64,000 bases of DNA from a bacterium (GCA_965221165.1 CBDCRP010000003.1:64001-128000); one strand, 5' to 3'; positions 11,488 to 57,298 are shown, counted from the stretch's first letter. The notes: generated by a model not told the origin, from the letters alone. Translations and numbers: made by a program.

Positions 11488-12144
11488 ATGGATAACGCCC
11501 CTGTACGGTTCACGGTATACAGTGATTTTTTGTGACCCTGGTGCTTTAACTCGGCCGTGCGCCTGAAGAAGATAAAAGAAGAATACGGAGAGAAAGTAGA
11601 TATTCAGTATCGGGTTTTCATGCTGAGGCCCGAGCCGGACCCCACGGCGGTGTTCAACGATTACCGCAGAAACCACTGGACGAACGCGAATTCGCAGCCC
11701 GATTCCGGTGATTTCACCTTATGGGAGAGCGAGGAGGAATTCCCGAACTGCTCGATGCCGTCTGCAGAAGCGGGGCTGGCGGCGAGATTCCAGGGACCCG
11801 AAGAGTGGGAAAAATTTCACGACAATCTTCTGGCCGCTTTCTTCACGGAAAACCGGAACATCTCGGACAAGAAAACCGTGGGCGACGTGGCGGAGGAAAG
11901 CGGCCTGGACATGGACAGGTACCGCGACGCTATTGAAAACGGGAGTTTGAAGGAAAAAGCCGTCAAGGAATACATGGAGGCCACGAATTTGGGGATAACG
12001 GGCATCCCCTCCGTAGTCGTGAACGATCGCGCGGTCATGGTCGGCGCGGTGCCGGCCGAACAATACAGATACGTCATCGACAGCATCCTTGAGACCGGTG
12101 AATTGCCTGGACGCGCACCCGGCGAGTTGCCAATCGCGGACTGA
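11488..12144 (+). CDS. DsbA/FrnE-like thiol-disulfide oxidoreductase, predicted selenoprotein (UGA at 11533-11535, motif U-P-W-C)
   Basis: AAGGAG RBS and ATG 11488 give MDNAPVRFTVYSDFL-TGA-PWC, in frame with the 11557 ORF. TGA occupies the first Cys of the family D-x-x-C-P-W-C motif. cis-Pro motif GITGIPS. Confidence 0.88.
11551..11566 (+). promoter_or_regulatory. Candidate bacterial SECIS hairpin of the DsbA-like selenoprotein
   Basis: TC-GGC[CGTGC]GCC-T-GA; loop begins at +21 after the TGA. Confidence 0.6.
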
Positions 12145-12186
12145 AGCAGCCTCTGTGGATGCGCCAGGAAACGAGGAGTCTTTCTT

Positions 12187-13179
12187 CTGAATCCTTCTGA
12201 TCTCAAAGGCTACATAACCGATGTTCCGGGCTTTTATCTCGGCCACGCGCACGATGATGGGGCCAAAACGGGCGTCTCCGTGGTGCTTTGTCCGCCCGGA
12301 ACCGTCGGGGCGTGCGAATTGCGCGGCACGGCGACGGCCACGCGCGGTATGGATGCTTTGCGCGCAGAACACCTTGTCGGAGGCGTGGATGCGATCGTCC
12401 TGACGGGAGGAAGCGCATTCGGCTTGGCCTCTGCAGACGGCGTCATGGCCTTCCTGGAAGAGCAGGGCAGGGGATTTCCCACCGGGCGGTTCAACGTGCC
12501 CACGGTCGCCGCCGGAGTGCTGTTCGACCTGCATTTCGGTGATGGCCGAGTCCGTCCGGACGCCGCCATGGGACGCGCCGCATGCGAGGCGGCCTCGAAC
12601 GCCGAAGGCCCCCAGGGAAGCGTGGGCGCGGGCGCGGGAGCCACGATAGGGAAACTGTTCGGCCAGGAGCGCGCCATGAAGGGCGGCATGGGGACGGCGA
12701 GCGTTGAGCTGCCGGGGGGCGGCGTCGTGGGCGCGGTTGCCGCGGTGAACGCCTTCGGCGGCATCTATGATCCTGAGACGGGAAATCCCCTCGCAGGGCC
12801 GAGGGCGATGCCTCCTGACCAAGGAATCGTGAATACGGAAGAGCACTTGAGGATCCACGGAAGACCCTTCGAGGGATTTTCCAACACTTCCGAGAATACG
12901 ACGCTCGTAGCTGTCGCGACGAATGCCTCCTTGACGAAAACCGAAACCCACAAACTCGCCCAGTTGGCGACGAACGGGCTCATTCGTACGGTCCGTCCTT
13001 CTTTTACGACGGTGGATGGAGACATGGTGTTCGCACTCTCCCGCGGGGAGCGAGAGGTGGCTCTCGACGTCGTCGGGGCTGCCGCCATGACGGCCGTCGG
13101 CCACGCGATATGCCGCGCGGTGATGGAGGCCGACGGCGGAGGCATCCTCCCCGCCTGGCGCGATCTTCCCGCATCGTAA
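12187..13179 (+). CDS. P1 family (DmpA/S58) aminopeptidase; probable CTG start
   Basis: ITDVPGF..GH, LTGGSAFGL, GSVGAGAGA, NTTLVAVATNA, DGDMVFALS. GAGGAG at 12173-12178 precedes CTG 12187. Confidence 0.85.
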   Translation: MNPSDLKGYITDVPGFYLGHAHDDGAKTGVSVVLCPPGTVGACELRGTATATRGMDALRAEHLVGGVDAIVLTGGSAFGLASADGVMAFLEEQGRGFPTGRFNVPTVAAGVLFDLHFGDGRVRPDAAMGRAACEAASNAEGPQGSVGAGAGATIGKLFGQERAMKGGMGTASVELPGGGVVGAVAAVNAFGGIYDPETGNPLAGPRAMPPDQGIVNTEEHLRIHGRPFEGFSNTSENTTLVAVATNASLTKTETHKLAQLATNGLIRTVRPSFTTVDGDMVFALSRGEREVALDVVGAAAMTAVGHAICRAVMEADGGGILPAWRDLPAS

Positions 13180-14408
13180 TGACCTCTGATGCGCAAAAAC
13201 CGGTTTGGAGATTCGGCGATTATTTTGATCTAAGCGTCATCGGCTTGACCCACGGGCTGAGCGATGGGTTTTCCAACATGCTCGTTCCCGTTCTCGCGCT
13301 CATCGTCATCGAGCTCGAACTCTCGCCCTTCGAAGTGGGAGTCCTGCTCAGCACTTTCAGTCTGGGGCAGATGATCTTTCAATACCCCCTTTCCATACTG
13401 GCGGATAATACGGGCGCCAGAAAACGAATCCTGCTGATGGGTATGGGCGTTTCCGCTGCGTCTTTCATTGCGATGATGTGGGTGAGCCGGTTCTTGCCGA
13501 TGTGCGCCCTGGCGTTTCTGGCGGGCGCGGGAAATTCCGTCTACCACCCGTGCGGAACGGCGCTGGCGGCGAATCGCTTCGAGCGCGACCGCGCATTCGC
13601 CATTTCTTGGCACAGCCTGGGCGGCAACCTCGGAACCAGCATCCTCCCGCTGGCCCAGGCGGCGCTGGCGGCGGTAGCCGGATGGCGCGCGGCCATCGGC
13701 GCTTGCGCGGCTCCCGCCATTGCGCTCCTCCCTCTGGTGAGCGCCCGGTTCAGCGATGGGGAAAATAGATCCATCCGCGAAGCGGGAAAAACGGCGGACC
13801 TGAAAGTCTTCTCCATCATCAGGCGGGTCGTCGAGAACAGAAACACGGTGTGGCTGGCGGCGACCTACACCTTCCGGAGCATGTGCACCAAGGGAATGAT
13901 TGGTTTTCTGCCCCTGCTGGCGACCTCGAAGCTGGGGATGAACACGGCGCAAATCGGCGTGGCCGTATCGCTCCATTTCGGGTTCGGCATGTTGGCCAAG
14001 CCATTGATGGGAATCCTGTATAACCGCTGGGGGGCGAGGGCCGCCCTGTTCTGGCCCATGACGTTACTGGGAGTCTTCGTTTTCGCCCTGCCGTTCATGC
14101 AGTGGGAAACGGGTTTTTATATTCTATCCGCATTGACGGGCGTCGTCGGGTTCGTGAGCCCGATTATCCTCACCGCGGCGGCTGATTTTTCGGAGAGAGA
14201 CATTCTCACTTCATCCGTAGGCTTTATCTACACTTGCCACGGCTTGAGTTTTCTCGCCCCCTTGTTGGGCGGGTGGCTCGCCGGGCAGGTGAATCTGGAT
14301 GCGAGCTATTTTTGTTTTGCGATCATGGGTTGGCTGGCCGTTTCGACGTCGGCGCAGTTGCGAGGCAAAAAGCAAAAACCTGACGACTCGAGGAGAGAGA
14401 CGACATGA
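13179..14408 (+). CDS. MFS transporter (Fsr-like)
   Basis: About 12 hydrophobic segments; HGLSDG, GNSVYHP, GGNLG. Confidence 0.85.
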   Translation: MTSDAQKPVWRFGDYFDLSVIGLTHGLSDGFSNMLVPVLALIVIELELSPFEVGVLLSTFSLGQMIFQYPLSILADNTGARKRILLMGMGVSAASFIAMMWVSRFLPMCALAFLAGAGNSVYHPCGTALAANRFERDRAFAISWHSLGGNLGTSILPLAQAALAAVAGWRAAIGACAAPAIALLPLVSARFSDGENRSIREAGKTADLKVFSIIRRVVENRNTVWLAATYTFRSMCTKGMIGFLPLLATSKLGMNTAQIGVAVSLHFGFGMLAKPLMGILYNRWGARAALFWPMTLLGVFVFALPFMQWETGFYILSALTGVVGFVSPIILTAAADFSERDILTSSVGFIYTCHGLSFLAPLLGGWLAGQVNLDASYFCFAIMGWLAVSTSAQLRGKKQKPDDSRRETT

Positions 14409-14797
14409 CGCGAGAGTATTTCAAGGGCGCCTGGCAGGAGGATCGCTCGTTTTCGCCAGCGGTGAAGACGAAAGGAGGCGAGCAGATATGGCTGGCCGGC
14501 GTAGGGGCGTGGCGCGATGATGAGGGGAACGTGCTGGCGGGGGATTTCGACGCGCAGGTGCACGCCACGTTTCGCCAGATGGAGCGCACCCTGGAGCGGG
14601 CCGGCGGAAAACTTCAGGATATCGTGACGATGACGGTGTTCACTCTCGACGTCCAGTACGGGGGTCGCTTCGTCGAGCTCAGAAAGCAGTATTTCCCGGA
14701 TGGATATCCCGGCAGCGCCTTGATCACGGTGGCGGGTTTCGCCAAACCGGAAATGATGGTCGAAATACAGGCCATCGCCGTCGTGGGCGAGGAGTAG
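14405..14797 (+). CDS. RidA/YjgF family protein
   Basis: FSPAVK, LAGVGA, YPGSALITV, MVEIQAIA. The canonical Arg is not evident. Confidence 0.85.
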   Translation: MTREYFKGAWQEDRSFSPAVKTKGGEQIWLAGVGAWRDDEGNVLAGDFDAQVHATFRQMERTLERAGGKLQDIVTMTVFTLDVQYGGRFVELRKQYFPDGYPGSALITVAGFAKPEMMVEIQAIAVVGEE

Positions 14798-15004
14798 CAT
14801 AGGAGGCGCAGAGCGAGGCTCCAGATTTGCCGCCTTCGGTAAAGGATGCTAGTCTCGAAAAATTATTGAAACGCTTCCGGGTGGTGAGCGGGCGCCGCGT
14901 TTTTCATAATACATCCGGTCTGTGGCCCTCATCAGTGCGGCGAATCATCTCGCCATCCGAACGAAGCGTATGCTGCCGCTTTCTCGACAGGAATTCTCTT
15001 ATCC

Positions 15005-15814
15005 ATGTCCCCATCCGATAACGGCACGAATCCAACGCTGCGCCTTCAGGGCGTCGGGAAATGGTTCGGCTCCCTCCATGTGCTCGATGAAATCGACATC
15101 GACGTGAAGACACAGGAAATCCTGACGATTCTTGGTCCCAGCGGGTGCGGGAAGACGACGCTTCTTCGGATCGTGAACGGACTCATTTTCTGCGAGAGGG
15201 GAGAGGTTTCCTTCAAAGGAGAGGTGGTCACCGGTCCGAGGCCGGAGATGGCCATGGTTTTCCAGAACTTTGGGCTTTTCCCCTGGAAGCGCCTCGACCA
15301 GAACATCGGCTACGCGCTCAGGATACAGGGTAAGGAGAAGGGCGAAATCGACAGCCTCGTGAGCCACTACACGGAGCTGGTGGGTCTGGAGGGCTTTGAG
15401 GCGAACTACCCCTCGCAATTATCGGGGGGTATGCAGCAAAGAGCGGGCCTGGCGCGTGCGCTCGCCGCACAGCCCGACGTTTTGCTGATGGATGAGCCTT
15501 TCGGCGCGCTCGATGCGCTGACGCGTGAAACGCTGCAGGAGGAGTTGCTGCGCATCAACGAGGTGGAACCCAAGGCGATGATATTCATCACCCACAGCAT
15601 CGACGAGGCGCTTCTGCTCGGGGATCGCGTTCTGGTGATGACGCCCAGACCGGGGAGAATACGCTTTCAGTTCGAAACCGGCTTCGGCCGCGGCAGAGAC
15701 CTGGAAGAACTCCGGGGCGGCAAGCGCTTTCAGGCGCTGCGCCATTACCTCTGGGAAGCCATGCGCAATCCCGACGAAGAGCCGGAACCCATTCCCGAAC
15801 TTATCGCTGAATAG
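15005..15814 (+). CDS. ABC transporter ATP-binding protein (TauB/SsuB type)
   Basis: GPSGCGKT, LSGGMQQR, LLMDEPFGALD, ITHSIDEA. Confidence 0.93.
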   Translation: MSPSDNGTNPTLRLQGVGKWFGSLHVLDEIDIDVKTQEILTILGPSGCGKTTLLRIVNGLIFCERGEVSFKGEVVTGPRPEMAMVFQNFGLFPWKRLDQNIGYALRIQGKEKGEIDSLVSHYTELVGLEGFEANYPSQLSGGMQQRAGLARALAAQPDVLLMDEPFGALDALTRETLQEELLRINEVEPKAMIFITHSIDEALLLGDRVLVMTPRPGRIRFQFETGFGRGRDLEELRGGKRFQALRHYLWEAMRNPDEEPEPIPELIAE

Positions 15815-15828
15815 GAGGCATCAGTCCT

Positions 15829-16653
15829 TTGGCTACCGACGCCCCTGCGGCAACAGGCGTATCGACGGCGGAAAAAGCAACCTGGGAGCGCATCAAGGAA
15901 CCCGCCGTATACGTGCGCTTGATATCGCTGGTGGTCGTCATCGGCGGGTGGGAGTTGATGGGGCTGACCGGCAACATCGATCCGGTCACCTTCAGCTACC
16001 CGAGCGCCATATCCGTCGCGTTCTGGGAACTGATTGAAAGCGGGAAGATGACAGCCGCCGCATACGAGAGTTCGCAAATCCTGGTGGCGGGTCTGCTCAT
16101 CGCGATCCCCTTAGGCATCGTGCTGGGGACCCTCATGGGGCGCTTCCAGATTTTCGAGTACGCCGTGGACACTTACGTGTTCGCGCTCTACGCCACGCCC
16201 GTGGTCGCGCTGGCGTTTCCGATAGCCATGGTTCTGGGTGTGGATTTCGTCGGCAAGACGACCATCGTCGTCTTCTTCGCCATCATGCCGATCATCGTGA
16301 ACGTCTATCACGGCGTGCGGAACGTGGACCTCTCGCTCCTCGAGGTGACGCGCTCTTTCTGCTCAACGGAAAGCCAGAGGTGGCGGGATTTGATTTTCCC
16401 GAGCGTGGTTCCTTATCTCGTCGCGGGCCTGGGGCTCGCGTGCGGACGCGCGTTGGTGGGAATGGTCGTCGCGGAGTTCCTGATGAGCATCTCGGGACTC
16501 GGCGCGCTGAGCCAGGACTACATCGGGGATCTGGAACTGGACAAAGGCCTGGCGCCTGTTGTCTTGTTGATGGCAGTCGGTATAGCTTTAACCAAAGTCG
16601 TGAACGTCTGCGAGACGAAGTTTTCATCCTGGAGGGTTCGGCAAGAGTCCTGA
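15829..16653 (+). CDS. ABC transporter permease (TauC/SsuC type)
   Basis: Six TM-like segments; EAA-like loop LLEVTRSF; GMVVAE. TTG start after AGGAGG. Confidence 0.9.
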   Translation: MATDAPAATGVSTAEKATWERIKEPAVYVRLISLVVVIGGWELMGLTGNIDPVTFSYPSAISVAFWELIESGKMTAAAYESSQILVAGLLIAIPLGIVLGTLMGRFQIFEYAVDTYVFALYATPVVALAFPIAMVLGVDFVGKTTIVVFFAIMPIIVNVYHGVRNVDLSLLEVTRSFCSTESQRWRDLIFPSVVPYLVAGLGLACGRALVGMVVAEFLMSISGLGALSQDYIGDLELDKGLAPVVLLMAVGIALTKVVNVCETKFSSWRVRQES

Positions 16654-16709
16654 TGGTGGGCAGCTTGCCGAGACATGAATTTTCTATTCTTCTTAAGGAG
16701 TTTGGTGAA

Positions 16710-17723
16710 ATGAAAAAGACATGGATGGTATTGGTCGCGGCGTTCGTTCTCGCCGCAACGACGTGGAGCGCGCCGGCGCAGTCCGCCGCCGCCGACAAGA
16801 TAGTGCTCGGCATGCCCGTGCGGCCGCCGGTCATGGTGCACCTGCCTGTGTTCTACGCGCTGGACAACGATATTTTCAAGAAGCACGGCCTGGACGTCGA
16901 GATTAAATTCTTCCGGGGCGGCGTCGCCACGCACCGGGCGATAACGAGCAAGAAGAGCGGCCTGGACGCCGCCTGGGTGCCGGCCCCGATTGCGATGGTG
17001 GGCATCACCAAGGGCAGCCGCATGAAGTTTTTCCACTCGATGGCCTACCTGAACGAAGCGCAGATGGCCGGGAACGAGCAGGTCAAGAAGCCGTCCGACT
17101 TGAAGGGCCGCACCATCGGCATCGAGGGGCGCGGCGGATACAGCCACCTGGGCGCGCTCGCCGTCTTGTCGACCGCAGGCCTGGCGGATAAGGACGTGAA
17201 ATACATCAAGACCCCGCCTCCGGCGCGCGTTCCCTTCCTGCTCAAAGGGAAAGCCGACGCCGTGGTCATCCACGTCGAGCAGGTTCTCGTCGTCAAGAAG
17301 AGAAAACCCAGCTTCAACAAGCTGATGGACCTCTGGAAAGCCATGCCGAACTTCTTCTACGGGGCGTTCATCGCGCCGTCTTCGAAGATCAACGCGAACA
17401 AGGACGCCTACGTGCGCTTCGCCATGGCGATGATGCAGTCCAACCGATCCATCTACAAGGACAAGGCGGGCTATCTTAAATCGGCGAACAAATGGGTGCG
17501 TCCCGTCTATAAGAAAAACCCCGAAATCATGTCGAAAACTTATGACATCTTCGTGGCGGAGAAAATCTGGGGCGTGAACAACGGCATCCCCAAGGCCTCG
17601 GTTTCCTTCACGGCGGACTACATGAAGCGCCTCGGCAAAATCAAGGGCAAGGCTCCCTCTTATGAGGACATCGTCGACACGAGCGTGACGAAGGCCGCGC
17701 TCGCCAAGGCAGGCAAGATTTAG
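16710..17723 (+). CDS. ABC substrate-binding protein (NMT1/SsuA type)
   Basis: Signal peptide; FKKHGLDVE, DLKGRTIG. Confidence 0.88.
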   Translation: MKKTWMVLVAAFVLAATTWSAPAQSAAADKIVLGMPVRPPVMVHLPVFYALDNDIFKKHGLDVEIKFFRGGVATHRAITSKKSGLDAAWVPAPIAMVGITKGSRMKFFHSMAYLNEAQMAGNEQVKKPSDLKGRTIGIEGRGGYSHLGALAVLSTAGLADKDVKYIKTPPPARVPFLLKGKADAVVIHVEQVLVVKKRKPSFNKLMDLWKAMPNFFYGAFIAPSSKINANKDAYVRFAMAMMQSNRSIYKDKAGYLKSANKWVRPVYKKNPEIMSKTYDIFVAEKIWGVNNGIPKASVSFTADYMKRLGKIKGKAPSYEDIVDTSVTKAALAKAGKI

Positions 17724-17745
17724 ATATCTCATTGCGCGCAAGAGT

Positions 17746-17787
17746 CAGGGCCGCTCGCGCTCTTCGAGTGCGGCGGCCCTGTTCTTT
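17746..17787 (+). terminator. Rho-independent terminator
   Basis: CAGGGCCGC...GCGGCCCTG stem followed by TTCTTT. Confidence 0.7.
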
Positions 17788-17811
17788 GATAACGAGAAAG
17801 GGAGTAGTAAC

Positions 17812-17952
17812 GTGAAGATTGTTCTGTATTCCGACATCCACGCCCAGCTTGCGCCTCTGGATGCCTCACGGCGAGCGAATCGCCAAAATGGTGCGGACCG
17901 GAGAGTTCTGGAACCCGGCCCACATGCCGCATTAGGCGTCCCGTGCCCGTAA
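17812..17952 (+). pseudogene. Truncated N-terminus of a metallophosphoesterase
   Basis: GGAG RBS and GTG give MKIVLYSDIHAQL (D-x-H metal motif); stop after 46 codons. Confidence 0.55.
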
Positions 17953-18693
17953 CCGTTCATGGCGTGAAGCCCCGGGCGTGGGAGGAGCAGGTGAAATCCT
18001 TCGTCAGAAAGCGCTACGCGCATCTGGCGGAGGCGCGATGCGTTCCCCGAAGGCGGTGCGGACAGAGCGCGAGGAGCAGGCTATCCCGCCCGCTTTATCG
18101 ACGGACTTCCCGAACGCGTTTCGTCCTCTTATTGCGGCTGCGGGTACCTGCTCGAGGGAGTCGACCTCGCGGGCGTGCAAACGGCCGTCGAGTTGGGATG
18201 CGGCGCGGGATTAGACGCGCGTCTTCTGAGCGAGAAGCTGGAGGCGGGCGCCAGGCTGTTCGCGGTGGATTTGGCGCCCCAGATGCTTCATCGTACGCGC
18301 GAGGCGTTTGTGGGTCTCCATCAAGACGCGCGCGTGCATCTGCTGTCCGGGGACATGGAGAACATCCCCATTATGGACGGCGTCGCCGACGTTGTGCTCG
18401 CTAACGCCTCGCTCAACCTGACGGTGAACAAGAAAAAGGCGCTCGCCGAGGCGCGCCGCATATTGAAGCCGGGTGGCCGCCTCGTGGCCCGCGAATTGAT
18501 ACGTGAAGGCGAATTGCCCGGTGAGATCGCCCAGGACCCCCAGGCGTGGAACGCCTCGCTCGGCGGGGTCTGCGAACAGACCGAATGGGAGTCCCTGCTG
18601 GCGAGCGCCTGTTTTTGTGATATTGATGTTTCCGGCCACGCTCCGTTTCGTCCGGTGGTTTCGGTTCGGATCCATGCCCGAAAGGCCGCTTGA
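17943..18693 (+). CDS. ArsM-like SAM-dependent methyltransferase with a frameshift near 18030-18037
   Basis: First frame VKSFVRKRYAHLA; second frame GYPARFIDGLP..SYCGCG..VELGCGAGLD..GDMENIP..LKPGGRL. Confidence 0.75.
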
Positions 18694-18704
18694 GGAGAAG
18701 AAAA

Positions 18705-19784: not shown

Positions 19785-19863
19785 CTGAGCAGCAAAGATG
19801 AAGACGAATCCCTGATCGTCTCTTGACTCTTGATGCGAGTTGGGTAAACTTTTTGCGCTGTAT

Positions 19864-19938
19864 GCGGGAATAGCTCAGTGGTAGAGCACAACGTTGCCAA
19901 CGTTGGGGTCGCGGGTTCAAATCCCGTTTCCCGCTCCA
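19864..19938 (+). tRNA. tRNA-Gly (GCC)
   Basis: GCGGGAA acceptor stem, D-arm AGCTCAGTGGTAGAGC, anticodon arm CAACG-TTGCCAA-CGTTG, GGTTCAAATCC, encoded CCA. Confidence 0.98.
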
Positions 19939-19953
19939 TTTATCCATGACAAA

Positions 19954-19981
19954 GCGGGGAGCGCGGGCATGCGTTCCCCGC
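19954..19981. terminator. Hairpin between the convergent tRNA-Gly and NIPSNAP genes
   Basis: GCGGGGAGCGC...GCGTTCCCCGC inverted repeat. Confidence 0.5.
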
Positions 19982-20610: not shown

Positions 20611-20761
20611 GGGATATGGGCTCTCCATAAAATGGATACCGAAAAACATCGTCAAACCGCTGGAGTCAATATAATCTGCCTTACAAACCATCTATAATAC
20701 AATGAATGAACAGTATCTATTTCTTCATTGATGGATATATCTGCGTAAATGGAGGCTGAAT

Positions 20762-21481: not shown

Positions 21482-21593
21482 GGCCACTTGCGCAAACCCG
21501 ATGAAATTTGCCCGTCATCCCGGCTGGGGAATAGGGTGTTTCTCAAAATCGCCACCCCTTCCTTTTCGATCAGGCTTGATAATTGCCTTTGAT

Positions 21594-24227: not shown

Positions 24228-24248
24228 TCGATTGCAAAACGCCCGTTT

Positions 24249-26803: not shown

Positions 26804-28440
26804 CTAGATTTTCGGGCCGGCCGCCGCGACGTCCGGCGTCACCCGATCCGCGAACTGCTCGAAATTCTCCCGGAACGCTCCGGCGAGCTCGCGTATTTTC
26901 TCGTCGTATTTTTCAGAACTCGTCCAGAGCTTTCTGGGGACCATGAATTCATCGGATACATCGGGACAACTTATGGGAACATGGAGATCGAATATCGGCA
27001 CGTTCTGGGTGGGAACATTGGCGAGCTCGCCCGTTAAGGCGGCCGTCAAGAGCGCGCGCGTATGATGCAGGGGCATTCTGTCGACCTCGCCGGCCGCTCC
27101 GCCGATCCAGCCTGTGTTGACGAGCCAGACTTGTGCGTCGTGCTTCTTGAGCCTGTCCCTGAGCATCTCGCCGTATTCGGCGGGGTGTAAGGCCAGGAAG
27201 GGTGCTCCGAAACAACTGCTGAACGTGGCCATCGGCTCATCGACGCCCGCCTCGGTGCCCGCCACTTTCGCCGTATAGCCGGAGAGGAAATGGTAGGCGG
27301 CCTGTTCGGGCGTGAGTTTGCTGATGGGGGGCAGGACGCCGAATGCGTCGCAAGTAAGGAAGAATACGTTTTTCGGGTGCCCGCCCATGCCTGAGAGTAC
27401 GCAATTGTCGATGAAATGCGTAGGGTAGGTGGCGCGCGTGTTTTCCGTTATCGACATGTCGTCATAGTCGATCTCCCGCGTTTCGTGGTCGACGATGACG
27501 TTTTCGAGAACGGACCCAAAGCGGATCGCATCCCAAATCTGGGGCTCTTCCGCTCTCGTGAGATTGATGGTTTTTGCGTAGCAGCCCCGCCTTCGAAATT
27601 GAAGATGCCCGAATCCGACCACCCGTGCTCATCGTCGCCGATGAGTTTTCGGTTCTGATCGGCGGAGAGCGTGGTCTTGCCCGTGCCGGAAAGTCCAAAG
27701 AAAAGGGCCGTATCCCCATCGTGGCCCATATTCGCCGAACAATGCATCGGAAAGACGCCTTTTTGCGGAAGCAGGTAGTTCATGATGAAAAAGGCGGATT
27801 TCTTCATCTCTCCGGCGTATTCCGAGCCGCCGATGAGCGCCATGTTTTTCTCAAAATTCACGAGCGTGAAATTATTTTGCCGGAGTCCTTCCGCCGGCCC
27901 TGCTCCCAGGAACTTACCCATATCGATCACCGTGAAGGGGGTTTCGTGATTTTCCAGTTCACCGGGTTTGGGGCGCACAAGGAGGGTCTGGCAGAACATC
28001 GAGTGCCACGCCTGTTCGGAAATAACGCGCACGGGGAGCTTGTAACGCGGGTCGTTTCCCACAAATCCGTCGAAGATAAAAAGGTCGCGCTTTTGGGCGT
28101 AACTGGCGATTTTCTGGAAAATGTTGTCCCAGTTTTCGGTCGATATTTTCTGGTTGATGGGTCCCCACCATATCTTCTCGTTGGAAGGCCCCTGGTCTAC
28201 CGTGAATTTATCCTTTGGGGAGCGACCCGAGAATTTGCCGGTATGGACCACGAGCGCGCCATTGGTGGCGAGGTATCCTTCGCCGCGCGCAACCGCCATT
28301 TCATTCAATTCTGCGATGGGAAGATTCCGGTAAACGGTTCCAATATTTTTGAGACCCAGTTTGTCTAGACCAAACGTTTTTTCCGTTCCTATGCTCGCAC
28401 GTGAGGGGGTTCCCTTTCCTCCCTCCTTGGCTTGTGCCAT
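26804..28440 (-). CDS. pckA: Phosphoenolpyruvate carboxykinase (ATP), frameshifted at a G-run near 27585-27588
   Basis: GRSPKDK, YAGEMKK, FFGLSGTGKTTLS, LIGDDEHGW, NFEGG|CYAK across the shift, ENTRATYP, LVNTGW. Confidence 0.92.
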
Positions 28441-40905: not shown

Positions 40906-41108
40906 TCCCCCGACCCTCAAGGTGGGGAGTGATTCCAGATAGCGCGCTGCATTGACTGCGGGCCGGAATGAGGGTGACCATTCACCACCGAAGATGACGG
41001 CCTTGATGTCGCGGGGGCTTGCGTCTTACCATGGCGTCACCATCCTGAGACCCTTGCGATTGAGCCGAGGCATCCCCCTTGCGTATCAATCCCGACCGAG
41101 GAGTTGAA

Positions 41109-42378
41109 ATGCGCAGATTGTTTTTCATCGGACAAGGTCTGGCGCTCGCTTTCATGGTGTTCGCGACTGCCGCTTTCAGCAGTGGTTTCAAATCGGGGCC
41201 ACTCGGTGCGGTTGAGATCAAGCGCGGTCAGCCGATCGAAATCCGCGTTCTCCTTTCCGATACGGTCGTGCCGTCCGTGTCCCCTCTCATTCAGACCGCC
41301 ATCGAGATAGCGGTCAAGGACTTCGGTCCCATACACGGGCGCCGGGTCTCCACCGAAACCCTCGACGAGATGTGCTCGGGCGAGGGTGGGCGCGCGACGG
41401 CTGAAGCCGTCGTTGCCGACGCGCAGGTCGTCGGCGTCATCGGCACCTTGTGCTCCGGTGCAGCGGTGGAGGCGTCGCCCGTCATCAGCAAGGCGGGTCT
41501 ATCGATGGTATCGCCGTCCAACACGGCGCCTGTCCTCACGTCCGACCTGTCCGGGAATGCCGGTCCCGACTACCACAAGGGTTACTACCGTGTTGTGGAC
41601 AACGACCTCATCGAGGCAAGCATTGTCGCGCATTTCAGCTACGATGAACTTGGATTGCGCACGATGGTGACGATCCATGACGGTGACCCGTATACCAGCG
41701 CCATTTCGAACGCTTTTGCCGTTGCTTTCAGGAAGCATGGCGGCACTGTTCCGGTCATCGCCCAGGTGGCGAAAGGCCAGACCGACATGGCCGCCGTTCT
41801 CGCCCGGTTCGAGGAAGCCGCCCCCGATGGCGTGTTCATCCCGCTCTTTCCGGCGGAGGCAACGTCCTTGATTCGACAGGCAGCCCGGCTCGGCGCCCTG
41901 AAAAGCGTGAGGAGAATCAGTGGCGCGGCCACATTGGCGGCTCAGTTTCTTGCGTTGCCCGAATCGAAAGGCGTCTATTTCACGGGACCTGATCTTGGAG
42001 ACAGCAGGAACACGAACCAGGCGACAGGCAGAAGCGCTGCGGACGTACTCACCGAGTTCAAGGCAGCCTATGGAGGGCCTCCCGACGTCCCCGTACTGGG
42101 CGCACGGCTATGACGCTACGACACTGCTACTCTCGGCCATCAAGCAGATTTCGGTCGTAGATGGGGAGACGCTGTACATCGACCGTGCGGCGCTCCGTGA
42201 CGCATTGAATCGCACCGCAGGTTTCCAGGGCATCATCGGCACGCTTACCTGCGATGACTTCGGGGACTGCGGCACCGGCCGCAGCGTGATACATCTGCAC
42301 ATGGACTCCAGTGTCACAGACCCGTCACTCCTGCCCATCGTGTACAAGGGTGCGCGGGAGTCGCACCCGCCTCAATAG
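41109..42378 (+). CDS. Branched-chain amino acid ABC substrate-binding protein (LivK-like), frameshift near 42081-42083
   Basis: Signal peptide; GVIGTLCSGA, SPSNTAP, IHDGDPY; second frame AHGYDAT..FQGIIG.LTCDDFGDC. Confidence 0.85.
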
Positions 42379-44913: not shown

Positions 44914-44926
44914 CAGGAGCTAAACG

Positions 44927-46144: not shown

Positions 46145-46146
46145 TC

Positions 46147-47175: not shown

Positions 47176-47207
47176 GTGATTCGCCAGTACGTTCGTTAGA
47201 AGTTTCG

Positions 47208-47238
47208 GGGCGGGGTCCGAAAGGGCCCCGCTCTTTTT
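47208..47238 (+). terminator. Rho-independent terminator of the oxidoreductase operon
   Basis: GCGGGGTCC-GAAA-GGGCCCCGC followed by TCTTTTT. Confidence 0.85.
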
Positions 47239-47275
47239 CGCTCACGCCTGAGCGCACGAATACAAAGAGACGAAG

Positions 47276-48166: not shown

Positions 48167-48214
48167 AACCCATTTCCTTCTGAAACCGGATGAAGCGCGA
48201 CATGCCCCGGTTGA

Positions 48215-49741: not shown

Positions 49742-49821
49742 CTCATTCAGTCCTTAGGACAAACCTTGCCCCCGTGATGACAGCGATTCCCCAAGGGCGG
49801 GCAAAGGAAATGGTTGAATAA

Positions 49822-50313
49822 TCAATTCCAGTAAAACAAGAACTCCAGATATCCTTTTGGCAGAGGGATAATCAAAAATTTTTCGAAAATGTAATACACC
49901 ACGACAGGGACGCCTATCGCTACGGCAACACTCGTCCTGAATCTGTGATGTCCCACCACGAACAGACAATAAAAGAGGAAAAGAGCAGACGAGAAATACA
50001 CGGAAATAACGGTGATCAGTAGAATCATGATCATTCCGGGAAGGCCGACACGCATCAAATCGTGCAGACCTTCCCTGCTCATAAAAATTCCTGAACCCTC
50101 GCCAGTTGATTTATTCCGGTGGGAGAAAAACAGCGATTCCAGCAATACGAGCAACGACACGCCGGCTATCCCCAAAGAGAGCCAGAAGGGGAGGAACCCC
50201 CCTCCTGGCCCTTCTTTTGGAAGAATGCCGACAGGCAGTTCCGTAGATTTCCAGGCGACGCCAAGGCATACGAGAATCAGACCAATGGCGACAATCCTAT
50301 CCGCCCGCTGCAT
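49822..50313 (-). CDS. tctB: Tripartite tricarboxylate transporter TctB
   Basis: GPGGGFLP, IFEKFL.IPLP; lies between tctC and tctA. Confidence 0.85.
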   Translation of the reverse strand: MQRADRIVAIGLILVCLGVAWKSTELPVGILPKEGPGGGFLPFWLSLGIAGVSLLVLLESLFFSHRNKSTGEGSGIFMSREGLHDLMRVGLPGMIMILLITVISVYFSSALFLFYCLFVVGHHRFRTSVAVAIGVPVVVYYIFEKFLIIPLPKGYLEFLFYWN

Positions 50314-50330
50314 CTAAATTCTTCTCCAAG

Positions 50331-51335
50331 CTAATTCTTCAGCAAACCCATACCCATGAGCAGCTTCTTATGCTTTGCGTCCTCGGAGGCGAAGAATTTG
50401 CCCAGAGGAGCGCCACTCAGGCAAGCGCGATTCAGGGCCTTCTTTTCCGTATAGGTTTTCCATTCCCCGGAAGCGCACAACTTGGAGAATAAATCGCTAT
50501 ACCATTTCAGGGCATCCTTGGGGATGCCGCCGGGCGCGGTGATGCTGCGCTGCATGAAATACACGAGTTGCGGCTGGCCCATTTCCTTGAAAGTAGGGAC
50601 TTCCTTGAAAGCGGGAATCCGCGCCGGGGTCAGTGCGGCGATCGGCCGCATTTTGCCGGGATAGTGCGGCAGACCCTCGGATGGGTTGTTCACCGTCGAA
50701 TCGACATGCCCGCCGGCGAGATTTTTCGCCACGGTGCCGCCGCCACGGAAGGGCACGTAGGTGATCATGCCTTCTATGCCATACGCCTGCATCAGCATGT
50801 TGGTGACGAGTTGGTCTTCCTGCATCTTGCCCGTGCCGCCCATCGTCCATTTGCCCTTTTTGGCTTTCACGGCCTTCACGAAATCATCCATATTCTTGAT
50901 GCCTGACTTCGGGTTCACCCAGAGGAGAAAGGTGTCCATGGCCAGCCGGTAGACCGGCGTGAGTTTCGTGTAGTTCACCGGCAGCTTCCTCAAGGCCGGG
51001 GTGGTGAAAAAACTGTTCAACGTGACGAGAATCACGTGCGGGTTTCCTTTTTTCGAGAGCAGATAAAGCATCGCCTCGGCGCCGGACCCGCCTTTCTTGT
51101 TGATGGGCACCAGGGGCTGGGGCGACCATTTGTTCTGCGTGACGATTTTTTGCATGAGACGGGCGATGCGGTCCGCGCCGCCGCCTTTACCCGCCATGAT
51201 GATGAACTCAATCGGCCGCGACGGCTTCCATGCCGCGAGAGCCTGTGTGGTCCCCAGCGCAACCGTGATGAATAACGTCAGCGCGAGGGTGAGGAACGGA
51301 ATAGCGCATCTCGAAACTTTCGGCGATTTCATCAT
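50331..51335 (-). CDS. tctC: Tripartite tricarboxylate transporter binding protein TctC (Bug)
   Basis: Signal peptide; WKPSRPIEFII..G.GGGAD..AR, N..GGSG, VPFRGGG. Confidence 0.92.
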   Translation of the reverse strand: MMKSPKVSRCAIPFLTLALTLFITVALGTTQALAAWKPSRPIEFIIMAGKGGGADRIARLMQKIVTQNKWSPQPLVPINKKGGSGAEAMLYLLSKKGNPHVILVTLNSFFTTPALRKLPVNYTKLTPVYRLAMDTFLLWVNPKSGIKNMDDFVKAVKAKKGKWTMGGTGKMQEDQLVTNMLMQAYGIEGMITYVPFRGGGTVAKNLAGGHVDSTVNNPSEGLPHYPGKMRPIAALTPARIPAFKEVPTFKEMGQPQLVYFMQRSITAPGGIPKDALKWYSDLFSKLCASGEWKTYTEKKALNRACLSGAPLGKFFASEDAKHKKLLMGMGLLKN

Positions 51336-51594
51336 ATTCCCTCCTTTTTATGCTGCGGAATGCTGCGCCTGCTACAGCGAAAACGATCCCATCACCGGTT
51401 GATGATTGAAAAAACGATTTCACTACTCTTATCAACGGCGGAACGTTTCAAAAAGTACTCTTTCATAGCGGCTATGATTCCTTGCATTTTACCACGAAGC
51501 AACATGCTTCTCAACGACGCGATTTTCGACTATGACCCGTAAAATAGTGGTAATTGCATTATCAACTCCGTATGAAGCGGAAAAACGATTGCGT

Positions 51595-52038
51595 TTAAGT
51601 TTCTTCAATGTCTTCTCTCAATTCGAACTCCCTGACGGCGCGGCGAATATAGGGAGGCACCCGGACGGATGTTTGCGCTTCTTTCCCGATGATGACGTAG
51701 GCCGTCTGCGCCCTGGCGACGAAGCGCTCCGATTCCGCCTCGTAGATCTCATAATCCATCTTGATGCTCGAGTTCCCAATATCGTAAATGCGCGCGTAGA
51801 TTTCCAGGACTTCATCGAAATGGGCGGGTGCGAGAAACTGGACGGAGGCGTCCACGATGACGATGTCATACCCCCGCTCGAGCATGTCCTGGTACGAGAC
51901 GCCGATGGTGCGCAGGTAGTCCATCTGCGCGGTATCGACGTACAAGAGGTAGTTGGCGTTGAACACCACTCCCTGGAGGTCGGTTTCCCCGAAGCGCACG
52001 CGGATTTCACTGTTATAGTTGTATTCTTCTTTGGGCAT
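51595..52038 (-). CDS. Acyl-CoA thioesterase (YbgC/4HBT hotdog fold)
   Basis: RVRFGETDLQGVVFNANYL.Y. Confidence 0.9.
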   Translation of the reverse strand: MPKEEYNYNSEIRVRFGETDLQGVVFNANYLLYVDTAQMDYLRTIGVSYQDMLERGYDIVIVDASVQFLAPAHFDEVLEIYARIYDIGNSSIKMDYEIYEAESERFVARAQTAYVIIGKEAQTSVRVPPYIRRAVREFELREDIEET

Positions 52039-52105
52039 ATGGCGGTTTTAATGAATATGCGTGAAATTCGCAAATGCGGGCTCTCATCCTGAAGCGGCCT
52101 TCGGC

Positions 52106-52133
52106 TTGTTCCCTCACCGGCGTCGGTTATAAT
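52106..52133 (+). promoter_or_regulatory. Possible sigma70 promoter for moeA
   Basis: TTGTTC, 16 bp, TATAAT. Confidence 0.45.
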
Positions 52134-52189
52134 AGCGCATCCCGGATGGCGGGACTTTGAATCTTCACGGCTATTCCCTGGAGTGGTTG

Positions 52190-53457
52190 ATGATCAGCGT
52201 GGAAGACGCTCAGAAATCGATACTGGAGATGATTCGCCCGATGGGGCGCGAAAGGGTGGGCCTTCTCGATTGCCCGGGCAGGGTGCTGGCCGAGGACGTC
52301 CATTCCTCGCGGCCCGTTCCGCCCTGGAACAACTCGGCGATGGACGGCTACGCCCTGCGCGCGGAAGACGTGCGCGGCGCGAGCCGCGAAACGCCAAAAG
52401 CCCTGAGGGTGTCGAGGAGATTCAGGCCGGCGTGATGGCGACGCGCACTCTCGGCCCGGGAGAGGCCATCAAGATCATGACGGGCGCGCCCATTCCAGGT
52501 GGAGCGGACGCCGTCGTGCTCGTCGAGGAGACGGAGAGAATCTCCGAGGAGGAAGTTCACGTTTTCCTCGCCGTACGCGAGGGAGAGGCCATCCGCCTGG
52601 CGGGTGAGGACGTCAAGCCGGGCGAGGAGGTTCTCTCCCGCGGCGTTCGCCTGGGCGCAGCTTCCGCCGGCATGTTGGCGAACATCGGCAGGGCGAGGGT
52701 GTACGTGCATCAAAAACCAAAAGTGGCCATTCTGGCGACGGGAGAAGAACTGGTCGATCTGGGCGATACGCCTGATGTGGGGCAGATATTCAACTCCAAT
52801 TCCTACGCCCTCGCGGCTCAGGTGCTCGAGGCGGGCGGAGAACCCGTTCTACTGGGCATCGCCCGCGATAACGCGGAAGACCTCACGCGCCACATCAACG
52901 ACGGGCTGGCCGCCGATCTGCTGATAACGAGCGGCGGCGTGTCGGTGGGGGATTTCGATCTGGTGAAATCCACGCTGGGCGGGCTGGGCAACGACATGCG
53001 CTTCTGGCGGGTGCGAATGAAGCCGGGCAAGCCGATGGCATTCGGCGTATTGAGCGGAAAGCCCGTGTTCGGCCTGCCGGGGAATCCCGTTTCCACCATG
53101 GTCAGCTTCGAGCTGTTCGTGCGGCCCTCGCTGCTGAAAATGCAGGGCCATGAGAACCTGTTCCGCACGATGGTGGAAGCGCGCCTTCTCCACCCGCTCA
53201 CGAAATCACCCGAGCGTCGCCACTATGTTCGCTCCATCGTCTACCGCGACGGGGGAGAATGGGCCGTCCGGGCGATCGAAGCGCAGGGGTCGAATATCTT
53301 GCATTCCATGGTGCGGGCGAACGCTCTGGTCGTATTCCCCGAATATGAAACCGAGCTCGCCGCCGGGGGCCGCGTACAGGTCATTCTCTTGGGGGAGACG
53401 CCCTCTGAAAAACCCGAACGCTTAGAGGCGGCCTCCCTCGAAGGCGTCCACTCCTGA
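52190..53457 (+). CDS. moeA: Molybdopterin molybdotransferase MoeA, frameshift near 52410
   Basis: GRVLAED..PP..NSAMDGYA in frame 1; IMTGAP.P.GADAV, TGEEL, ITSGGVSVG, KPGKP, LPGNP in frame 2. Confidence 0.92.
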
Positions 53458-53500
53458 ATCAATTGCTTCCAGGTTATCGACTCCTTCTGGAGTGTGCCTT

Positions 53501-54122
53501 ATGAACCCCGAAAAAACGGCCAGATTGCCGTTTTCCGCCGCCATCCTGGCCGGAGGCCGAAGCCGCCGGATGGGCAGGGACAAATCCATGCTGGAGATAG
53601 ACAAGGTTCCCATCATCAGGCGCATCGCGGATACCCTGGATGAGATATTCACAGAAATTTTCGTCGTAGCGAACGAGAAAGAAGAATATGAGCGTATGGG
53701 TCTCGCCGTGGTGGGGGATATTCATCCCGGCAACGACTCGCTGGGCGGCCTCCATACGGCCGTTGCGAGCGCGGCGGGCTCGCACGTTTTCGTGGTGGGG
53801 TGCGACATGCCGCTGCTGCAACCCGCTCTCATATGCGGCATGGCCTCCCTGGTGGATGATTGGGACGTGGTTGTCCCCATCAAGGACGACTACCCCTGAG
53901 CCGCTTTGCGCGTTCTACGGAAAAAAATGCGCGCCTCATATCGAGGAATCCATTTCGAGAGGCCGCCTGAAGATGATAGGGTTTCACGAGCAAGTGCGCG
54001 TCAGGAGAGTTGAGGAGGCGACCTGGAGGGCGTGGGATCCCGAGGGGGCGTCTTTCCTGAACGCGAACACGCCCGAAGAATTCGAGAAGAATAAAAACCA
54101 TCTCTATGAGGGGAGAGCCTGA
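53501..54122 (+). CDS. mobA: Molybdenum cofactor guanylyltransferase MobA, frameshift at a C-run 53894-53897
   Basis: ILAGGRSRRMGRDK, CDMP, then EPLCAFY and NANTPEE in the next frame. Confidence 0.9.
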
Positions 54123-54581
54123 ATGAGCATTTCTGATCGAATGAATGAGCTGGGAATCGAGTTGCCCCGTGCGCCCGCACCCGTCGGGGCGTATGTTCCA
54201 TACGTCATCTCCGGGTCTTTGATGTTCATCTCGGGCCAGGTTCCAATCCGAGACGGCGCGATGATTCATGAGGGAAAAGTGCCGCTCGACGTCACCGTCG
54301 AGCAGGGGCAGGAATGCGCCGCGTTGTGTTTTCTAAACGCCGTCGCACAGGCGAAAGCCGCCCTGGGCGATCTGGAGCGCGTGGAGAGAATCGTCCGCAT
54401 GACGGGTTACGTTGCCGTTGCGGCCGATTTCACGGCTCAACCGCTCGTCGTGAACGGGGCGTCCAATCTGGCCGTCGATATTTTTGGGGAAAAAGGCAAG
54501 CACGCCAGAGTGGCGGTGGGGGTGGCGGAACTTCCCCTGGGAGCGCCCGTGGAGCTTGAGGTAATACTCGAGGTCAAGTAG
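54123..54581 (+). CDS. RidA/YjgF family protein
   Basis: LP.APAPVGAYVP, ISGQVP, NGAS, GKHAR.AVG..LP. Confidence 0.9.
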   Translation: MSISDRMNELGIELPRAPAPVGAYVPYVISGSLMFISGQVPIRDGAMIHEGKVPLDVTVEQGQECAALCFLNAVAQAKAALGDLERVERIVRMTGYVAVAADFTAQPLVVNGASNLAVDIFGEKGKHARVAVGVAELPLGAPVELEVILEVK

Positions 54582-54719
54582 ACCCTTAAGCGATGGACGC
54601 GCCGAAAATTCCGCCGAAAGGGGGAAGCATTTTATCCCCCCGCGCTTCCCAAGACCCGGCATCGCTGTATAATCTTCAAGGAAAACAAGCCGTCATTGAA
54701 ACAACAAACTGAGGGTTCC

Positions 54720-56165
54720 ATGATTCATCGCTTCATCCTGTCGATGCTCTTGATGTTGCTCATGGGTTCCGCCGCGCCTGCGTATGCGAACCCGGACATC
54801 GATTTCATGAAAAGAATCGAGAGGGCGTTCACCGCGATAGCGAAAGGCGTAAAGCCGACGGTGGTGAGCATACGGGTGGAGAGAAAAAAAAGGACAGCAC
54901 AGAAGAATCCCCAGTCGCCTCATCCGAACATGCCTCTGTTTTCGTCGGGTTCGGGCGTCATCATCGACCCGGCGGGATATATTCTGACGAACAATCACGT
55001 GATCAGTAATGCGCGAAGACTGCGCGTGCGCCTTTCGGACGAGTCCGCATACTGGGGGAAAGTCGTCGGCACGGATCGCTATACGGACCTGGCGCTCGTC
55101 AAAATCAATACAGATCATCCGCTGCCTGCGGCGACTTTAGGAGATTCCGACAAGGTGAAGGTAGGCCAGTGGTCGATAGCCGTGGGCGATCCTTTCGGTA
55201 TTACGAGAACATTCACGGTGGGCGTCGTGAGCGGCATCGGGCGCAGCGGCGTCGGCATCGCGCGCTATGAGCATTTCATCCAGACGGACGCCGCCATCAA
55301 CCGCGGCAACAGCGGCGGGCCTTTGGTGAACATCGACGGCGAGGTCATCGGCATCAACACGGCGATTCCGGCCCCCGGCAGCGGCATCGGATTCGCCATT
55401 CCCGTCAACATGGCGAAAGACGTAGTCAAATACTTAAGAAGAAGCGGGAATTTTCCGCGCGGGTATCTGGGCGTAACCATACAGCCGGTGAATCAGGATA
55501 TCGCCTATCTGCTGGGCCTCCCTGAAGCCCAAGGGCGCACTCGTGGGTTCATTGCTGAAAGACGGACCGGCCGAGGGAGCGGGCATCCAGGATGGGAGAC
55601 GTCATCGTCAGCCTCAACGGCGCGAACGTCCTGGATACCTCCCACCTGCAACGGCTCGTGGGCTGGACGCCGCCGGGAAGAGGCGGTAGCCGTGGAAGTG
55701 GTGCGCAGACGCCCGGATGAAGAAAATTCATGGTCAAACTGGCCCGTTTGCCCGAGCAGGAAGCCGACAGGTAGCCGGAAAGCGCGCGAAGAGTGAAGCC
55801 GATGAAGCCTGCGAAAAGCATAAAACTTACGGCATGGACCTCGAAGATCTGACCGATGCAGTTGCGCGAAGAAGAGCAACTTGCAAGACCGACAGCGGCG
55901 TATATATACGCAAGGGTGTGAAACAGGGCAGCAGAGCCTATCTGGACGGTTTGCGCGAGGGTATGGTGATACGCGAATTGACCTATCGCGCGCCCGGGGA
56001 CGCGAGAAAACGCCGGTACGCGTGCGTGATCAAGAAATTAGAAGACGTCGAAGCATTGCTGGAAAAAATCCCCGCGGGCGCGAACGTCCTGGGGCAGGTC
56101 GTGCGCGTGGAACGGAGCGTGGAGAGCGGACTTTCTTTACCGTGCTCCATAGATTTCGACGCTAA
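54720..56165 (+). CDS. degP: DegP/HtrA serine protease with PDZ domains; several indels after about 55515
   Basis: GSGVII..TNNHV, DLAL, QTDAAINRGNSGGPL, GIGFAIP, RGYLGV. PDZ pieces (GPAEGAGI, GDVIVSLNG) are spread across frames, so the 3' end is uncertain. Confidence 0.85.
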
Positions 56166-56203
56166 CCCTAGCGGGTACCTGGCCGCCTGAGGAGAGCACT
56201 CCC

Positions 56204-57298
56204 ATGTTCGCAGACCAGAAGCGGACTTTTTGCTCTGTTTTTCCTGATTTCCGTCGTCTTTCCGTTTGTTTGCGGGCGCAGAGCCCCGAAACCGAGATTC
56301 GCACCCTGCTGCCGAAAGACGGCATCCCCTCCATCGATGCGCCAAAATACGCGAGCGTGAAAGATGCGGACGCGTTCATGGGGCCGGATGAGATGGTAAT
56401 CGGCATCAACATCAAAGGAGACAAGCGGGCCTATTCGGTTCCCCTGCTCAGCTCCCACGAGATAGTAAACGACGTCGTGGGAGGGAGCGCCGTCTCCGTG
56501 ACGTGGTGACCGCTTTGCTATACGGCCATCGTGTATGACCGTGACCTGGACGGCAAGAAACTCAGTTTCGGCGTTTCCGGGAAACTCTGGAAAAACGTGC
56601 TCATCATGTACGACCGCCAGACGGATTCGCTCTGGAGCCATCTTACCGGCGAGGCGCTTATCGGCCCCCTGAAGGGCAAGCGTCTCAAAACGCACCCCTC
56701 CGCCATGATGCGCTATTCCGAATGGAAACAACTCTATCCCGATACCCTGGTGCTCAAGAAAGAGGGCAGGGGGATGGCGGGCATGTTCCGCGGCCCTTCC
56801 CGGGATCCGTATGAGGGCTATTACTACAGTTCACAGACGGGCGTGATCCCCGAAAAATACCGGGATAATCGCCTGCACCCGAAAACCCTGGTGGTGGGCC
56901 TTGCGCTGGATTCGATGACAGAGAAGGGGAAAGCAATGGCCAAGGTATACCCCTTCGCCGATTTGAACCGCGCAGGCGTCGTGAACGATCGCTTCGCCGG
57001 CCGGGAGATTCTGGTTACCTATTGCGAAGGTGCGGCGGCGGGAGTAGTTTTCGATCGCGTTTTAGGCGGGAAAACGCTGGAGTTCGAGTTGATAACGGAT
57101 AGTGGCGCAAAAGGCGCCGCCGCCTGCCGGTTCATGAAAGACAAGAAAACGGGTTCGCGCTGGCAGCGCCTGACCGGCCTCGCCGTGGAAGGGCCGATGA
57201 AAGGCGCCAGATTGCGCCAGATTTCCAGTACGCTCGCGTTCTGGTTCGGCTGGAAGGATTACTATCCCCAAAGCCGTATCTATCGGCACGCGAACTAA
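56204..57298 (+). CDS. DUF3179 family protein, predicted selenoprotein (UGA at 56507-56509, motif U-P-L-C)
   Basis: DGIPSID.P, RAY, HEIVND, VTW-TGA-PLC.T, then in frame FGVSGKL, MYDRQT.SLW, FWFGW. Confidence 0.9.
56522..56542 (+). promoter_or_regulatory. Candidate bacterial SECIS hairpin of the DUF3179 selenoprotein
   Basis: ACGG-C-CAT[CGTGT]ATG-A-CCGT; loop begins at +21 after the TGA. Confidence 0.65.

Follow-up and report, generated by a model that had tools for sequence, protein, structure and literature searches.

Within a 64,000-nucleotide (nt) stretch of bacterial DNA (GCA_965221165.1, CBDCRP010000003.1:64001-128000; referred to here, at its full length, as “the window”), two genes each contain an in-frame TGA codon at a position where homologous proteins have cysteine. 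One of them, gene A, encodes a DsbA-like protein; the other, gene B, encodes a DUF3179 protein. An original prediction, made from the sequence of the window, held that the two genes share an RNA hairpin with a CGUGY loop at exactly +21 after UGA, and that this hairpin is a selenocysteine insertion sequence (SECIS) specific to the lineage. Here, we describe a computational analysis of both genes and of the proposed hairpin. We consider it likely that both are genuine selenoprotein genes of catalogued families, recoded to selenocysteine (Sec) by the ordinary bacterial SECIS route, and that the loop is not peculiar to the lineage. On comparative grounds, the hairpin of gene B appears to be a genuine SECIS. 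The candidate SECIS of gene A falls below the published consensus. Positions are given in Table 1.

Table 1. Genes, predicted Sec codons and RNA structures in the window, numbered from its first nucleotide
Feature	Position	Strand	Basis
Gene A, predicted DsbA-like selenoprotein gene, 218 codons, Sec at codon 16 (FLUPWC)	11488..12144	+	PF01323 match and Cys alignment
Gene A predicted Sec codon TGA	11533..11535	+	Translation and alignment to Cys homologue
Gene A candidate hairpin, GGC/GCC around loop CGUGC (11556-11560, +21 to +25)	11553..11563	+	Hairpin of the original prediction; folding
Gene A competing fold, GGUGC (+5 to +9)/GCGCC (+24 to +28), 14-nt loop	11540..11563	+	Minimum-energy structure
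Gene B, predicted DUF3179 selenoprotein gene, 364 codons, Sec at codon 102 (TWUPLC)	56204..57298	+	PF11376 match, Cys alignment, TGA conservation
Gene B predicted Sec codon TGA	56507..56509	+	Translation and TGA conservation across loci
Gene B predicted SECIS hairpin, arms A-CGGCCAU and AUGACCG-U (stem 56523-56529/56535-56541), loop CGUGU (56530-56534)	56522..56542	+	Covariation and frozen synonymous sites

Two in-frame TGA codons and their common loop

The product of gene A has 218 residues, matches PF01323 (DSBA; 9.9e-23) and has the predicted Sec (U16) in the motif FLUPWC. In the Cys homologue P0167 (34% identity), the residue opposite the TGA is the first Cys of FLCPWC; Cys homologues carry CPWC, and the U sits in the N-terminal redox motif UPWC. 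The product of gene B has 364 residues, matches PF11376 (DUF3179; 4.2e-91) and has U102 in TWUPLC, where the U aligns with the Cys of TWCPLC in P0040, P0042 and others. Both TGA codons are in frame, and both lie at the first Cys position of a CxxC motif. This agrees with the initial assignment of the two as selenoprotein genes of unrelated families with TGA at a Cys position. NCBIfam has no specific model above cut-off for either protein.

Both families are catalogued as prokaryotic selenoprotein families in the available text of the relevant sources, i.e., DsbA-like proteins with PF01323 and UxxC (PMC9312934, PMC13188914, PMC1794560), and DUF3179 proteins with PF11376 and UxxC/T (PMC9312934, PMC13188914). 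Gene A resembles the DsbA-like selenoprotein form 1 in its domain and its UxxC motif (UPWC), and differs from it in that the candidate SECIS lies below the consensus criteria for stem and energy. Gene B has the PF11376 domain and a UxxC motif (TWUPLC); we found no difference between it and the DUF3179 selenoprotein family, of which it would be a further member. That family also has Cys (TWCPLC) and Ser (TWSPLC) forms. Since some homologues have TWSPLC (P0046 and P0050 in alignment A1), the first residue of the DUF3179 motif is apparently not universally redox-active.

Homologues of the two proteins share a pattern of truncation. All 44 clusters of close DsbA-like homologues consist of gene calls cut short just past the TGA point, with 69–89% query coverage, and 30 of these begin with [M/V]-R-L, exactly at the eighth codon after U (U+8). 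Five JGI entries among the DsbA-like homologues print V at the start, i.e., GTG. For DUF3179, all 39 matches with at least 60% identity, among the matches listed, are cut short at the same point and cover at most 70% of the query (201–260 amino acids), and the full-length matches listed are found only at 48% identity or below. Truncated DUF3179 homologues (P0003–P0039, P0041) start with M-Y-D-R in 24 of 38 cases. Truncation of this kind, seen in both families, is typical of Sec genes that have not been annotated.

On re-reading, the letters and coordinates originally described at both TGA codons proved exact. In each gene, 20 nt separate the TGA from a CGTGY pentamer: CGTGC with flanks GGC/GCC in gene A, and CGTGT with flanks CAT/ATG in gene B. 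In gene B, ACGG/CCGT lies outside CAT/ATG, beyond a C x A mismatch. A scan of both strands of the window for TGA-N20-CGTGY gave just these two sites, confirming the same loop at +21 in both genes. In each case, codon U+7 (GCC in gene A, ATC in gene B) supplies the C of CGTG at its third position, and the Val codon GTG at U+8 supplies the rest. CGUGY is common to the two genes because each protein has a Val at U+8 for which the codon is GUG, and the codon before it ends in C.

Chance frequencies were estimated with 13,395 in-frame pseudo-sites drawn from 40 genes of the window. CGTGY at +21 occurs at 73 of these pseudo-sites, and at six when a closing stem of 3 base pairs (bp) is also required. 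Among 200,000 draws of random site pairs, 44 had a 4-mer plus Y/R in common at a single offset within +11 to +31, together with 3-bp stems. The coincidence of loop and offset at the two genes is more than chance, and the loop observation is real and probably functional. The motif has no overall enrichment: shuffled sequences gave 3.78 ± 1.82 matches, and 92 of 100 shuffles had at least two. Folding alone does not distinguish the sites either: against shuffles, the two hairpin regions gave z-scores of +0.1 to +1.2, i.e., no added stability.

The SECIS hairpin of the DUF3179 gene

A genome search with a DUF3179 protein alignment gave 80 loci (designated here by L numbers), 79 of which cover the site; L080 ends before it. 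The labels of a close group (L001–L025, 60–89% identity) include Nitrospinota, Nitrospinaceae and Tectomicrobia. A distant group (42–50% identity) has the labels Anaerolineales, Dehalococcoidia, Chloroflexia, Caldilineae, ‘Deltaproteobacteria’, Binatia and Verrucomicrobiia. A TGA is kept at TW_PLC in 79/79 loci. Together with second copies in L061, L065 and L077, there are 82 TGA copies; the second copy in L045 has TGC. With the window included, the hairpin alignment comprises 83 sequences and is ungapped, the distance between UGA and loop being 20 nt in 83/83, with no indels.

The stem that we tested pairs positions +14 to +20 with +26 to +32. In this register, 92.4% of cells are paired, vs 25.8–48.1% with the 3′ partner slid by 1–3 columns. 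Two-sided (compensatory) changes occur at five of the seven pairs, and the covariation score of 0.159 (vs 0.041 ± 0.009) was reached by 0/500 shuffles. The arm variants differ in the amino acids that they encode, with Ala...Asp from CGGCCAU/AUGACCG, Gly...Ser from CGGGAAU/AUUCCCG, and Gly...Ala from CGGGCAU/AUGCCCG; further variants are CGAGCAU/AUGCUCG (L078) and CUGGAGU/ACUCCAG (L079). Constraint on the gene B SECIS is strong enough to make the amino acids of the two arms co-vary, a very clean case of RNA structure constraining protein sequence across phyla. A covariance model of the 83 DUF3179 hairpins scores its own site in the window at 39.2 bits (E, 6.6e-10).

Synonymous sites in the hairpin are also conserved. 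In the close clade (26 sequences), third codon positions within the hairpin have zero entropy, and most flanking third positions vary (entropy H, 0.47–1.41); the Cys codon, beyond the hairpin, does not vary either. Over the full set of 83 sequences, 76 use TAT for Tyr (background, 39–46%) and 69 use GTG for Val (background, 31–34%). Taken with the pattern of substitution on the two arms, these biases suggest that the hairpin is a genuine SECIS, and covariation in 83 sequences bears out its proposed role as a recoding signal. Cross-phylum conservation and covariation of the DUF3179 SECIS are the addition made here; we did not find them described in the available text of PMC9312934 and PMC13188914.

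Folding of 40 nt prefers an alternative hairpin in gene B, UAUACG/CGUGUA with the loop GCCAU. We rejected this candidate: it has no compensatory changes, and 500/500 shuffles equal it on percentage paired.

Orthologues with TGY codons that keep the same hairpin had been named as a sign that the hairpin is not a recoding signal. The sole Cys-form copy (L045:11419, TGC) lacks the inner stem, keeping only the three outer pairs. L045 thus has one DUF3179 copy in the Sec form, with the hairpin, and another in the Cys form, without it. Two DUF3179 copies occur in some Chloroflexota metagenome-assembled genomes (MAGs): L045 (10214, 11419), L061 (10232, 11573), L077 (10232, 11560) and L065 (3160, 9078). 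The paired copies are ~1.2–1.3 kb apart in three cases.

In the window, six of the seven stem positions of gene B are paired, and the hairpin energy is −5.2 kcal/mol. The stem is fully paired (7/7) in most other phyla, and in the other loci the median energy is −8.8 kcal/mol, with −7.5 kcal/mol reached in 46/57. The hairpin is weak in the window’s clade because of the C x A mismatch, which lies mid-stem (A2 columns 20/32; window 56526 and 56538) and is found in this clade and a few distant MAGs (32/77 distinct sequences). The mismatch costs ~5 kcal/mol compared with fully paired forms; there is still no synonymous drift.

Fit to the bacterial consensus and competing explanations

In the explanation that we prefer, SelB with Sec-tRNA(Sec) would bind an in-frame mRNA hairpin in each gene, and the UGA would be read as Sec. 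The hairpin would present a G-U in a small apical loop ~20 nt after UGA, and the Val codon GUG at U+8 would be a convenient placement of this G-U at the distance that SelB and the ribosome require. Gene A has the same loop letters in the same place, on three G-C pairs, and we infer by analogy that its candidate hairpin may be a SelB contact too. The prototype of such elements is E. coli fdhF, in which the critical loop G-U lies ~+20/+21 after UGA, i.e., in the same geometry as CGUGY at +21.

The consensus for bacterial SECIS elements is that of bSECISearch (Zhang and Gladyshev 2005), as restated in the available text of PMC13188914. It comprises (i) an apical loop of 3–9 nt on an upper stem of 4–16 bp; (ii) G within the loop's first two positions, with G or U usually coming next; (iii) a spacing of 16–37 nt between UGA and loop (also PMC10778597); and (iv) a minimum free energy no higher than −7.5 kcal/mol. 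Both elements in the window are hairpins that lie inside the open reading frame (ORF) just 3′ of the predicted Sec-UGA, which in gene B is an in-frame UGA aligning with Cys. Both loops are 5 nt long, lie 20 nt from the UGA, and have G and U at positions 2 and 3. Because loop and spacing already fit the general bacterial consensus, the CGUGY loop is not lineage-peculiar. The two elements differ from the consensus in that both stems are weaker than the energy cut-off, and in that gene A has three pairs (−3.5 kcal/mol), under the 4-bp minimum; gene B, with six pairs and the mismatch, has a stem of consensus size. Among catalogued bacterial selenoprotein entries, 87.4% have a canonical SECIS and 12.6% do not, and the available text mentions possible lineage-specific adaptations (PMC13326102).

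Several observations weigh against ordinary SECIS-directed recoding of both genes. First, the gene A hairpin fails the published criteria for both stem length and energy, and its pairs have a probability of 0.06 when 45 nt are folded and 0.006 when 106 nt are. The minimum-energy fold of gene A (40–60 nt) is the 5-bp stem GGUGC/GCGCC, which has an energy of −7.0 kcal/mol, also short of the cut-off, and excludes the candidate hairpin. A 3–9 nt loop on a 4–16 bp stem is therefore absent from gene A, since the candidate has 3 bp and the alternative a 14-nt loop. Second, V/L-R-L/M at the gene A loop positions is a feature of the protein family, and some 5-nt loop closed by 3 bp, with G[G/U] at positions 2–3 and a start between +17 and +25, occurs at 828 of the 13,395 random coding sites (6.2%). 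Third, hairpins of the close clade are weak in gene B as well (median, −3.8 kcal/mol), and 0/26 reach −7.5 kcal/mol; folds of 45 nt reach it in 12/26, the published cut-off applying to bSECISearch’s own window. Fourth, the G-U of the gene B loop forms positions 1 and 2 of a Val codon. Protein and RNA constraint are inseparable at these two bases because Val is conserved in Cys forms too, and there is one Cys-form DNA control (L045:11419). Lastly, searches of the 64-kb window with ARAGORN, Rfam and domain models found no selA, selB, selC or selD.

The points about gene A lead to an alternative that we regard as unlikely, namely that its resemblance to gene B reflects protein coding. Here, Val-Arg-Leu at U+8 to U+10 would give GUG-CGC-CUG, and the true SECIS would be GGUGC/GCGCC or an unrecognised structure. 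Distant Cys homologues of gene A keep S-V/L-R-L/M at the same positions, which is consistent with a coding origin, as are the minimum-energy fold and the frequency of comparable mini-hairpins at random coding sites. The covariance model of gene B also misses gene A, whose site is absent among 41 matches at E ≤ 10. However, the synonymous choices TCG, GCC, GTG and CGC in gene A are ~1% likely, by a rough estimate inferred from codon usage in the window. In the competing fold, the loop is longer than the consensus allows (3–9 nt), and neither of its first two bases is G. A start-type codon at U+8 in 30/44 homologue clusters fits a conserved GTG, vs a 31% background, and together with the low chance frequency of loop and stem (6/13,395) favours a functional element in gene A. 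A tblastn search with the DsbA-like protein (P0002) found no DNA of a gene A orthologue in the 80 fetched loci, where only the window itself matched. Because the gene B model misses gene A, the two genes share loop letters and offset, and not a hairpin family. The idea of a shared hairpin is not supported.

Slightly less probable again, in our judgement, is that CGUGY at +21 is a lineage-specific signal, with a SelB that reads mainly loop and spacing and needs little stem. If true, a SECIS private to the lineage would open up its entire selenoproteome to simple searching, and would suggest a divergent SelB. This idea draws on the two sites in the window, where a CGUGY loop sits at +21 on weak stems (−3.5 and −5.2 kcal/mol) in both cases, a coincidence that the pair and pseudo-site counts make improbable. 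It also draws on the close clade, which keeps a weak C x A hairpin in gene B with no synonymous change in 26/26, and on the share of catalogued entries that lack a canonical SECIS.

The distribution of the gene B element argues against this. In the 82 TGA copies, the loops at +21 to +25 are CGUGU (63 copies), AGUUU (5), AGUGU (4), GGUUU (3) and GGUCU (3), and CGUGC, UGUAU, AGUCU and CGGGU occur once each. AGUGU, AGUUU, GGUUU and GGUCU occur on the same stem, and only G-U is common to all these; over the 83 aligned sequences, position 2 is G in 83 and position 3 is U in 82. CGUGU at +21 of the DUF3179 gene is found in MAGs of Chloroflexota, Binatia, Verrucomicrobiia and ‘Deltaproteobacteria’. 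The window’s 21-nt hairpin (ACGGCCAUCGUGUAUGACCGU) recurs letter for letter in MAGs labelled Deltaproteobacteria (L035, L048, L052, L056), Verrucomicrobiia (L064) and Binatia (L067, L069). Because the exact hairpin recurs in several phyla, the element is a feature of the gene family rather than of the window’s lineage; it appears to be ancient and to have been inherited with the gene across phyla. The lineage itself contributes two examples only, and their G-U and 20-nt spacing lie within the general consensus. The claim of a lineage-specific SECIS is thus not supported. The evidence points instead to two further members of catalogued selenoprotein families with the general G-U loop geometry.

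A more restricted idea is that the SelB of a selenoprotein-rich, Nitrospinota-like lineage may work with a minimal SECIS, in which CGUGY at a fixed 20 nt counts for most and as few as three pairs can serve as the stem. We give this little credence. If true, gene A would be among the ~13% of catalogued selenoprotein genes without a canonical SECIS, and would be an example of the form that such an element takes. The site in the DsbA-like gene offers a concrete candidate SECIS that lies outside the consensus criteria and is open to testing.

The loop motif had also been put forward as a means of finding selenoprotein genes throughout the genome. It performs poorly in this role: ~3.8 chance matches are expected per 64 kb, and 10 of the 11 extra TGA-N20-CGTGY matches inspected in related loci have nearby in-frame stop codons, i.e., are out of frame. 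The sole extra match without nearby in-frame stops (L001:15884) was judged unconvincing. A search for further selenoproteins, in which codon usage was scored on either side of every TGA in the window, L001–L025 and L080 (2,351 candidates), found that only DUF3179 sites stood out in the window and these 26 close-group loci. Other high scorers look like antisense shadows of real genes. Two read-through candidates in the window, at 58274 and 31932, were rejected since their translations are not protein-like.

The machinery for Sec insertion was sought in the window and in related loci, with results that differ between them. In the window, Rfam and ARAGORN found only a tRNA-Gly, with no match to a SECIS family or to tRNA-Sec, in keeping with the lack of sel genes there. 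In a Tectomicrobia MAG (L025), ARAGORN found a tRNA-Sec with the anticodon TCA (L025:2-98, + strand), 3.4 kb upstream of the DUF3179 gene; its Rfam score is 75.2 bits (RF01852; cut-off, 47). The MAG behind L022 has 54 selenoprotein genes, among the largest bacterial selenoproteomes, and belongs to GTDB UBA8248, according to the available text of PMC13326102. It appears from these findings that Sec machinery exists in the wider group. We regard it as highly improbable that the in-frame TGA codons are genuine stop codons, lesions in pseudogenes or errors of assembly: several genes in the window look frameshifted, such as a phosphoenolpyruvate (PEP) carboxykinase gene split into two overlapping ORFs, and the window has no Sec machinery, but the TGA lies exactly at the Cys of CxxC between stretches of conserved coding sequence in both genes, and the gene B TGA is kept at every locus covering it and followed by a conserved hairpin, with tRNA-Sec in a related MAG.

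Truncated gene calls and neighbouring genes

In both families, the start of a truncated ORF is often placed at the GTG of the loop (window 11557 and 56531; proteins P0003–P0166). Gene callers systematically truncate both families, and public protein sets hold these proteins without the redox motif, which serves as a warning for annotation.

Downstream of gene A on the same strand is an S58 (DmpA-like) peptidase domain (window 12142–12300, + strand), which begins upstream of the first ATG, GTG or TTG (12280). The region is in frame with the stop codon of gene A (TGA 12142). An in-frame CTG at 12187–12189, 8 nt past GGAG, is a possible unusual start codon for the peptidase.

Several other genes in the window look interrupted. 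The ATP-dependent PEP carboxykinase ORFs noted above (window 26807–28440, − strand) are in different frames, with 27451–28440 corresponding to profile positions 2–265 and 26807–27622 to positions 253–464; the split looks like a frameshift, due either to an assembly error or to a pseudogene. Upstream of gene B, an HtrA-like protease ORF (54696–56190, + strand) has the trypsin domain only; its translation is not protein-like near the end, and protease-like sequence seems to continue in another frame. A MobA-like gene (profile 1–124 of 160) and a Peripla_BP_6 gene (17–276 of 343), at 53492–54119 and 41079–42375, also look cut, with overlapping ORFs after them. Because several indels fall in one window, they suggest long-read assembly errors.

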